DNA from: Escherichia phage BananaBelafonte
Direction: 5' to 3' (one strand)
Sequence record: PP925845.1
DNA: 51,510 nt
The translations under genes and the position numbers were made by a program. Each line of letters starts with the position of its first letter. Position 1 is the stretch's first letter. Below are positions 7,425 to 7,592 of this stretch, in pieces. Below the pieces are notes generated by a model. The model was not told where the DNA came from. It saw only the letters and a list, made by a program, of their open reading frames with translations, and did no database searches.

Positions 7425-7592
7425 TTGACAATGCGCGGCTGATTGGTTTACCATTAGCCCCGTAAACAAAAGAGGCTCCACCGGAGCAACGCGCGGCGCG
7501 ATATGCCGCAAAACCCAAATCGGGCAGGGAGAGCGCATTGCGCCCCGATGCCAGCGGGAACCGTAACCCGCAACCATTCAGGAGATTTGACA

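Follow-up and report, generated by a model that had tools for sequence, protein, structure and literature searches.

What is encoded in the 168-nucleotide (nt) gap between two genes of Escherichia phage BananaBelafonte, and why is it kept by relatives even where the flanking genes differ? The 51,510-nt stretch analysed (PP925845.1; hereafter the window, with positions counted from its first letter) is essentially the complete 51.5-kb genome of a T1-like siphovirus (Drexlerviridae, Tempevirinae), and its nearest record is Klebsiella phage vB_KM5a1-KLB26 (KLB26), with ~90% identity around the gap. The gap occupies positions 7425-7592, from a TGA stop (7422-7424) to the next supported ATG (7593-7595), as the first-pass annotation of the window had reported. 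Its description there as a GC-rich island holds to a moderate degree (57.7% GC vs 49.4% in the whole window), and its placement inside the early gene array has to be corrected, for it lies at the boundary of the early genes and the terminase/structural operon. We consider it highly probable, from comparison with related genomes, that the gap consists of a sigma-70 promoter (7425-7454) driving a structured + strand leader RNA (~7461-7592) which ends in a ribosome-binding site (RBS). The function of this RNA is far less certain. The best explanation overall, in which promoter and leader bring about antitermination in cis, has a probability of roughly one in three.

The region is conserved far beyond chance, because 62 phage records keep the gap, also where their flanks differ, and the + strand alone folds more stably than shuffled sequence (z = -2.09, compared with -0.21 for the - strand). 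Three separate searches, with the window, T1 and Hanriver/Warwick-type versions, returned 62, 70 and 130 phage records, respectively. Across several hundred T1-like phage genomes the element sits at the same spot, unannotated; the T1 copy lies in the unannotated gap 7591-7754, and none of the relative records opened has any annotation over the gap. Alignment A1 was made with MAFFT from 20 Tempevirinae sequences, and a covariance model (R1) was built from it. In the window (7460-7595), in Tls and in T1 the model gave a single strong match per genome, always in the same position, and it detected no second copy in any of the three.

The comparative evidence that the putative promoter at the start of the gap (Table 1) is genuine is strong. 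All 21 relatives compared, which span Tlsvirus, Changchunvirus, Warwickvirus, Henuseptimavirus, Kyungwonvirus and T1, share the layout of TTGACn, a spacer of 17 nt (16 or 18 nt in a few) and TAnnnT, and in most of them TGG directly precedes the -10 hexamer, which resembles an extended -10. The transcription start is predicted at ~7461 ± 2, because the downstream conserved block and the R1 match begin 4-5 nt after the -10 hexamer in the relatives (7 nt in T1 as scored). The re-annotation of phage TLS gives three promoters genome-wide, and the counterpart of the gap promoter is not among them (PMC11447400, Table S1). A sequence duplicated at the two edges of the gap, TTGACAATG, had also been pointed out. 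Both copies exist (GATTGACAATG at 7423-7433 and GATTTGACAATG at 7584-7595), yet the duplication is not part of the element. Relatives preserve just the first TTGAC, which is their -35 box; the second copy falls in the variable spacer between RBS and start codon, and KLB26 alone shares it with the window. By our estimate, two copies of a 9-mer would arise within 170 nt by accident with a probability of ~5%, and the duplication is a coincidence.

The structure of the transcript is indicated by covariation in related phages, a check which had been proposed beforehand and came out positive. The hairpins H2, H3 and H5 were recovered de novo from the alignment by RNAalifold. Of the 280 cells in A1, 99.6% hold standard pairs, and both partners vary in 7 of the 14 pairs; these values were reached by none of 500 shuffles, and pairing fell to 29-39% in the slid control, where the 3' partner was shifted. 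A second alignment, A2, comprises A1 together with T1, Henu7, ESP2949-1, XY3, LF82-10 and others. It shows double changes in 11 of 14 pairs at 98.7% pairing, although it leans towards structure because it was fitted to the model. Family-wide, all four pairs of H2 change on both sides, with stem versions as different as GCUC/GAGC, UGUG/CACA, GCCC/GGGU, CGGC/GCCG and GCGC/GCGC. In H3, four of five pairs do so, and many of its pairs are G-U on the + strand. The H5 stem covaries as well: it reads GCCAG/CUGGC in PHB07, GUGGG/CCCAC in L257, GGGGG/CCCCC in L255 and CCGGG/CCCGG in L320, and the whole hairpin is GCCGC-AGACCCGUAA-GCGGC in T1. Read on the + strand, the wobble cells comprise 20 G-U and a single A-C, so the structure is on the + strand.

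From the covariation, the strand bias and the gap lengths it follows that the gap encodes an RNA, and not a protein or a duplex-DNA site. Gap lengths among relatives are 118-139 nt, with differences that are not multiples of three; no open reading frame (ORF) in the gap is conserved among relatives, and the variation is compensatory in the stems instead of codon-periodic. The ORF without an RBS that had been noticed in the gap does exist (7503-7751, in frame with the downstream gene). Its ATG at 7503, the only one that leads an ORF here, is created by a 1-nt insertion in the H3 loop found in the window and KLB26 alone, and the ORF is therefore not conserved. An unannotated small protein gene, or an element acting as DNA (operator, replication origin or primer promoter, packaging site), is thus highly improbable. 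The GC-rich gap does have few stop codons, the element is near the terminase genes, and the promoter-spacer octamer CTGATTGG recurs as a motif throughout the genome, so that at least this part may bind a protein. Against a DNA-level role, the stem sequences change with pairing kept, G-U exceeds A-C by 20:1 on the + strand, and the orientation of the element always follows transcription. A replication origin at the gap was rejected, as the cumulative GC skew has no inflection there.

The leader RNA is ~125-130 nt long and contains, in order, the hairpins H2, H3, a variable H4 and H5. The palindrome quoted in the first-pass annotation is present as the apex of H4, which reads GCGCATTGCGC (7533-7543) on the + strand; the quoted string was that of the opposite strand, one flanking base off. 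H4 cannot be aligned column by column because its length varies. Among relatives it has eight sequence versions, each of which folds, starting right after AAAUCG and ending 0-1 nt before H5. The segments between the stems are conserved in sequence. In A1 the invariant single-stranded segments are CGU.AAC..A.GAG, AACG, GCGAUA (the H3 loop), AAAUCG, A(A/G)CCGUAA (the H5 loop) and AACCAYUCAGGAG. The last of these keeps a fixed distance from H5 also where the downstream gene differs, and in T1-like phages the RBS is fixed at 9 nt from H5.

In T1-like phages the element is always located between the early block and the short ORFs (or tRNA) ahead of the terminase genes and a structural operon of ~20 kb. 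The cargo after the leader is swapped: it is gp26-like, gp25 in Tls, gp27-like in P-K7R and tRNA-Ser in LF82-10. The basic-protein gene that follows in the window (phrog_6666) is absent from the P-K7R group, in which the RNA is retained. That the cargo can be a tRNA gene favours a role at the level of the transcript over one confined to translation. In a sister group (Henu7, L036, L037, L041, L040 and L042) H2 and H3 are kept and the 3' half is one long hairpin, the loop of which retains ACCGUAAG, followed by a U-run just before the RBS; its leader looks like an ~110-nt small RNA or an attenuator. The window group has H4 and H5 as its 3' half and lacks a U-run.

A small RNA, an attenuator or a binding site had been guessed from the window alone. 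The guess holds in that the gap encodes a conserved, structured + strand RNA with its own conserved promoter. The RNA is not a classical attenuator in the window, because no hairpin has a U-run next: 7425-7592 contains no terminator-like site on the + strand, and H5 is followed by AACCAUUCAGGAG. U-runs do follow the last hairpin in Henu7, L036 and L042 of the sister subgroup, and also in L108 and L150. A trans-acting small RNA of ~110-125 nt, pairing with host or phage mRNAs or sequestering a protein, would have the conserved promoter it needs, the strong hairpin and U-run of the sister subgroup would release a discrete RNA of ~110 nt, and the conserved A/C-rich single-stranded segments could be seeds or protein-binding sites. 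This possibility is nevertheless slim, since no terminator follows H5 in the window and most relatives, the conserved block runs on into the RBS, no target is known, and the H4-H5 module also occurs inside operons where it has no promoter of its own.

No known RNA family accounts for the element. Searches of Rfam 15 (4227 families, E up to 10) on 2 kb, on the 221 nt at 7400-7620 and on the L028 locus returned noise only, and no hit in 7400-7620 exceeded 14.4 bits, where the cut-offs are 45 or higher. ARAGORN detected no tRNA or tmRNA gene in the window, and in other loci tRNAs lie downstream of the module and do not overlap it. Weak Rfam matches at 8093-8178 (OmrA-B, RsmY, Leu/Trp leaders) were dismissed, being well below the gathering scores and caused by the terminator hairpin 8151-8172. 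In the literature we found neither a description of this RNA nor a transcriptome for T1-like phages. The element is a candidate phage leader RNA undescribed in the literature found, and it may be a new class.

The H4-H5 part also occurs outside T1-like phages. It was scanned for with an exact pattern of the H5 18-mer, so that the loop is fixed by the pattern. The scans returned the T1-like loci and about 16 convincing cases in unrelated phage contigs and metagenome-assembled genomes, in which a variable hairpin and a flank, AAAUCG or (U)(U)ACG, stand directly 5' of the H5 hairpin. Across 225 instances tested, 36 of the 186 non-T1 matches passed the hairpin-plus-flank filter, compared with ~11% for shuffled upstream sequence, an excess of ~16. 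The excess is modest, and in GC-rich bacterial genomes and metagenomes most exact matches to the 18-mer are due to chance. With the 14-mer, 70 of 107 matches in viral contigs had no stem extension at all, and a test for stop-free frames over H5 did not separate real modules from chance matches. The good cases are intergenic and co-oriented with the flanking genes, their H5 stems covary (GGGGG/CCCCC, CCGGG/CCCGG and GUGGG/CCCAC), and the flank AAAUCG precedes H4-H5 also in the unrelated contigs L024, L028, L108, L170 and L215.

Several of these modules adjoin tRNA genes. In L158 and L215 the module is 8-13 nt 5' of the mature tRNA 5' end, in L024 it precedes a tRNA array, and in L242 (LF82-10) and L044 a tRNA-Ser lies downstream of the H4-H5 module or of the whole T1-type leader. 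Such an arrangement suggests a translation-independent role. It would suit an element of RNA processing or stability, that is, a protective 5' stem-loop, an RNase site that splits cistrons or releases tRNAs, or a new small self-cleaving ribozyme. The intergenic, co-oriented position of the module points the same way, as does the fact that predicted transcripts of L024 and L028 begin with it, and its occurrence before unrelated genes of many unrelated phages is distributed like the known phage ribozymes and RNase III sites. We nonetheless regard this explanation as unlikely. An 8-nt loop and a flank held invariant over distant lineages exceed what simple stabilisation would require, Rfam offers no matching ribozyme family, RNase III does not typically act on a pair of short hairpins, and the retention of H2, H3 and an own promoter throughout T1-like phages would be left unaccounted for. 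The polycistronic mRNAs of T7 and T4 likewise have conserved intergenic hairpins directly 5' of cistrons, which serve as RNase III sites and 5' stabilisers. Unlike the element, these are long imperfect duplexes in which no loop is invariant, and unrelated phage groups do not share them.

Other members show what look like expression platforms. The L017 group, a lineage of phages from soil and sediment, has an H4 loop complementary to sequence that overlaps the RBS of the next gene, in three versions, CUCACC/GGUGAG, CUCAUCC/GGAUGAG and CUCACU/AGUGAG; since these covary, a pseudoknot that hides the RBS is indicated. A further pseudoknot, UACG/CGUA between flank and H5 loop, is possible in one non-T1 module class, with the loop fixed by the search pattern; the T1-like flank AAAUCG would pair with the H5 loop at only two or three positions. 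H5, its loop and the flank could form a small pocket that takes up a metabolite or a conserved protein of host or phage, and binding would switch translation initiation or local termination of the adjoining cargo. A pattern of conserved loops and junctions with covarying stems and one variable peripheral hairpin is typical of aptamers. In this pattern, and in its place in 5' untranslated regions, the element resembles riboswitches and the orphan cis-regulatory motifs (Rfam) of intergenic regions in phages and metagenomes; some of its members pair with the RBS, and others have terminator-like platforms. Also in favour are the covarying H4-loop/RBS pairing in L017, L060, L077, L119 and L255, the U6-7 after H5 in L108 and L150, the long hairpin and U-run in Henu7, L036 and L042, and the fixed spacing of RBS and H5. 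On the other hand, the platforms occur in some lineages only and the window itself has no conserved alternative pairing of the RBS. No Rfam riboswitch matched the 221 nt even at E up to 10, several members stand directly 5' of tRNA genes with neither RBS nor terminator, and the downstream genes share no evident function that would suggest a ligand. Such a riboswitch-like or protein-bound regulator is a serious minority possibility that ranks close behind antitermination, and it is the RBS pairing and the U-runs which keep it there.

The case for antitermination comes from what follows the leader. The late operon of the window contains at least eight strong intrinsic terminators, intergenic and co-directional (Table 1). 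The first of them lies just before the small terminase gene, and the homologous place holds an annotated terminator in T1, and terminator T28 in TLS (PMC11447400, Table S1). At least 11 terminators are annotated in the T1 late operon, and 11 on the + strand in TLS, T28-T50 (PMC11447400). Promoter-like sites between the genes of the window late operon were no commoner than in shuffled sequence, and the literature accessible to us offered no explanation of how late transcription passes the terminators. Given these terminators, RNA polymerase must be carried through them or each segment must have its own promoter. The only conserved canonical promoter at the operon entrance sits directly 5' of the conserved structured RNA. 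We hypothesize that promoter and leader are the entry point of the late transcription unit, and that the leader RNA acts in cis on the RNA polymerase which has just made it. The polymerase so modified would then pass the many intrinsic terminators between the late genes. H4-H5 would be a portable module, recombined before other operons and tRNA genes in unrelated phages.

The closest precedent for such a cis-acting leader is put of phage HK022 (putL and putR). It lies just 3' of its promoter, works without any phage protein and has a reach of at least 10 kb; the nascent RNA of PL-putL binds RNA polymerase and suppresses terminators over that distance (PMC9378689). Like put, the element is a structured RNA right after a sigma-70 promoter, heading a long operon with terminators, and no dedicated phage protein is evident near either. 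Unlike put, which is ~70 nt with two stem-loops and is present in two copies in HK022, it is single-copy, ~125 nt long and has four hairpins. The resistance to terminators that put confers on RNA polymerase depends on the beta' zinc-binding domain. Rfam has no put model, and by sequence comparison the element is evidently not a put homologue. That it works in the manner of put is a tentative proposal, drawn by analogy.

Several points weigh against antitermination by the leader. The likeness to put is, in this analogy, one of position and need alone; the two differ in size and number of hairpins, and the best R1 match in the HK022 early region (23-40.7 kb, filters off) scored 10.5 bits with E = 0.5. 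Outside T1-like phages the module often has no adjoining promoter, only L024 and L028 showing one. The covariation of H4 loop and RBS in one lineage points to translational control there, and the U-runs after the last hairpin in L108, L150 and the sister subgroup look more like an attenuator or a riboswitch platform. Finally, the 2004 T1 genome paper, as cited in PMC11447400, credits internal promoters between the terminators; if this is right, antitermination is not needed.

Comparison with phage lambda gives a similarly mixed picture. As in PR' with the 6S leader and Q-qut, a promoter and a short leader guard a late operon of ~20 kb, and as in the Q-binding element a conserved DNA motif lies in the promoter spacer. 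H5 loosely resembles boxB, being a 5-bp hairpin with a conserved loop, and in the window a gene for a small basic protein stands directly downstream, as N does after nutL. Unlike lambda, no Q or N homologue was found with Pfam and PHROGs; unlike nut, no boxA-like CGCUCUUA is present in 7460-7592; unlike boxB, the H5 loop has 8 nt and is not a GNRA-like pentaloop; and unlike the lambda leader, no terminator ends the leader in the window and the basic gene is absent in the P-K7R group. Riboswitches differ in turn: the element matches none of the Rfam families, it also stands before tRNA genes, and neither a ligand nor a common gene function is evident. In all, none of the features of put, nut, terminators, Rfam families, tRNAs or coding sequence that are testable here was found, except for the position relative to promoter and terminators. 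We would give less than even odds, though by no means negligible ones, to the element being a previously unrecognised self-sufficient class of regulatory RNA, either a processive antiterminator of a new kind that modifies host RNA polymerase, or a riboswitch or ribozyme of a new class.

T1 is one of the seven classical coliphages, and to our knowledge the mechanism of late-gene activation in T1 and its relatives is not known. We also know of only a few RNA-only antiterminators (put and EAR), so another one, if true, would be of real interest. The 2024 re-annotation of TLS leaves late-gene activation unsettled (PMC11447400). With a late operon of ~20 kb, 8-11 intrinsic terminators, almost no recognisable promoters, and a conserved promoter and RNA exactly at its entrance, the question of late expression in T1-like phages is now reducible to simple experiments. 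If the element is such a new class of regulatory RNA, it would be the long-missing late-gene switch of T1-like phages, with a portable core (flank, variable hairpin and GCGGG-AACCGUAA-CCCGC) that has reached many unrelated phages infecting Proteobacteria and other hosts. A core module common to unrelated phages and linked to tRNA genes suggests a general mechanism via host machinery. A well-supported, undescribed RNA family is added to phage biology, and the gap can now be labelled by annotators in several hundred Drexlerviridae genomes.

Table 1. Features of the gap and its surroundings, with related loci (positions in the window unless another phage or contig is named)
Feature	Position	Strand	Remarks
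Small early genes	up to 7424	+	
Promoter-like site TTGACG-18-GATAGT, then at once 10-bp hairpin CGCCCUGUAA...UUACGGGGCG, then CAGAUUUU	6979-7045		9/12
Upstream ORF, gp24-like, phrog_303	7194-7424		TGA stop 7422-7424; + strand
Promoter, sigma-70 type, TTGACA-18-TACCAT	7425-7454	+	consensus scan 10/12; best-scoring site of the region
-35 hexamer TTGACA	7425-7430	+	TTGACn in 21/21 diverse relatives
Octamer CTGATTGG in promoter spacer	7439-7446	+	just 5' of -10; kept there in nearly all Tempevirinae
-10 hexamer TACCAT	7449-7454	+	TAnnnT in all relatives
Conserved single-stranded 5' segment CCGUAAACAAAAGAG	7460-7474	+	sequence conservation, model R1 match
H2 hairpin, GCUCC-ACC-GGAGC	7475-7487	+	de novo by RNAalifold
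Linker AACGC	7488-7492	+	AACGN almost invariant family-wide
H3 hairpin, GCGGC-GCGAUAU-GCCGC	7493-7509	+	conserved loop (G/A)CG(A/G)U(A/U)
A/C-rich linker	7510-7522	+	3' end is the conserved flank AAAUCG (7517-7522)
H4 hairpin	7523-7552	+	length and sequence vary; GCGCAUUGCGC palindrome at the apex
H5 hairpin, GCGGG-AACCGUAA-CCCGC	7554-7571	+	5-bp stem, conserved 8-nt loop; single window copy
Conserved tail AACCAUUC and RBS AGGAG (7580-7584)	7572-7584	+	
Next supported start ATG	7593-7595	+	RBS AGGAG 7580-7584 in front
First downstream cargo gene, phrog_6666	7593-7751	+	52-amino-acid very basic protein (KKTRYKKRFKK)
Second downstream gene, phrog_2919	7738-7917		59-amino-acid protein with CxxC motif
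Small terminase gene	8224-8745	+	
Large terminase gene	8748-10322	+	
Strong intrinsic terminators	8151-8172, 10351-10371, 14057-14081, 15954-15975, 18592-18610, 19320-19337, 22402-22423, 24536-24554	+	intergenic, co-directional
CTGATTGG sites	221(-), 1777(-), 4895(-), 7439(+), 9523(+), 11872(+), 12006(-), 14213(+), 17040(-), 25484(-), 31158(-), 34120(-), 43738(-), 49550(-), 50316(+)	both	
ATAGCACnnnTTGnTAAAA-type repeats, examples	1220-1238, 1537-1555, 2640-2658, 4827-4845, 6145-6163, 10319-10337, 38460-38478, 50324-50342(-)		
L028 module			extreme 5' end of predicted transcript, before Erf-type recombinase gene
L024 module	L024 3795-3812	-	extreme 5' end of predicted transcript, before 10-tRNA array, tRNAs 3575-1693(-)
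L158 module	L158 5734-5751		tail AACCAUUCA, then tRNA-Asn at 5762
L215 module	L215 2504-2487	-	tRNA-Met 2478-2405(-) downstream, tmRNA also present
L017 group module			between structural genes
H4-loop/RBS lineage (soil and sediment phages)	L017 ~5290-5385(-), L060 1670-1745, L077 1015-1085, L119 ~870-930(-), L255		
Kinase / Stp-like annotations	L239 (Tls) 1865-1945, 3132-3695; T1 4948-5478		

The structural genes follow the terminase genes on the same strand (+), to ~28 kb. The 52-residue basic protein or the 59-residue CxxC protein encoded directly after the leader could be an RNA- or polymerase-binding partner of it, and the gene for the latter is the most widely conserved neighbour of the element. 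Pfam and PHROGs placed the small neighbouring proteins only in families of no assigned function, with no match to an N or Q family, and no homologues of them were found in the unrelated loci bearing the module. Further upstream, the hairpin within 6979-7045, whose counterpart is annotated as a terminator in phage Stevie, would set off the early genes from two small ORFs ahead of the gap, 7064-7192 and 7194-7424.

Some further pairings were considered for the gap and rejected. A hairpin H1 (7432-7464, promoter spacer and -10) appeared in single-sequence folds and is weak or absent in the P-K7R, PHB17 and T1 groups; its complementarity comes mainly from the conserved GACG of the -35 box and the conserved CGU. 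A kissing pair between AUCG of the flank and CGAU of the H3 loop shows no covariation, as Tls has CGUU with AUCG and PHB07 has ACCG with CGAU. The helix CAAAUC/GAUUUG around H4-H5 in the minimum free energy fold of the window is not conserved, and the other ACCGTAAS sites of the window are not in comparable hairpins.

The octamer CTGATTGG occurs 15 times in the window on both strands, against 1.6 expected, a count reached by none of 100 shuffles. T is the next base in 14 of the 15 copies, which form the commonest 9-mer core in the genome, and Tls (L239) has 23 sites. Several copies lie at homologous coding positions in the window and Tls in differing reading frames, so the octamer must be a motif of the DNA itself, not a by-product of codon usage; it may be where a phage regulator binds. 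The window also has 19 copies of a 21-nt repeat, ATAGCACnnnTTGnTAAAA, known already from phage TLS (PMC11447400). None of these 19 copies is at the gap promoter, which is thus of a different type. Lastly, T1-like phages have an annotated polynucleotide kinase, and Tls has in addition an Stp-like activator of the PrrC anticodon nuclease; together they form a tRNA damage/repair theme in the same early region.

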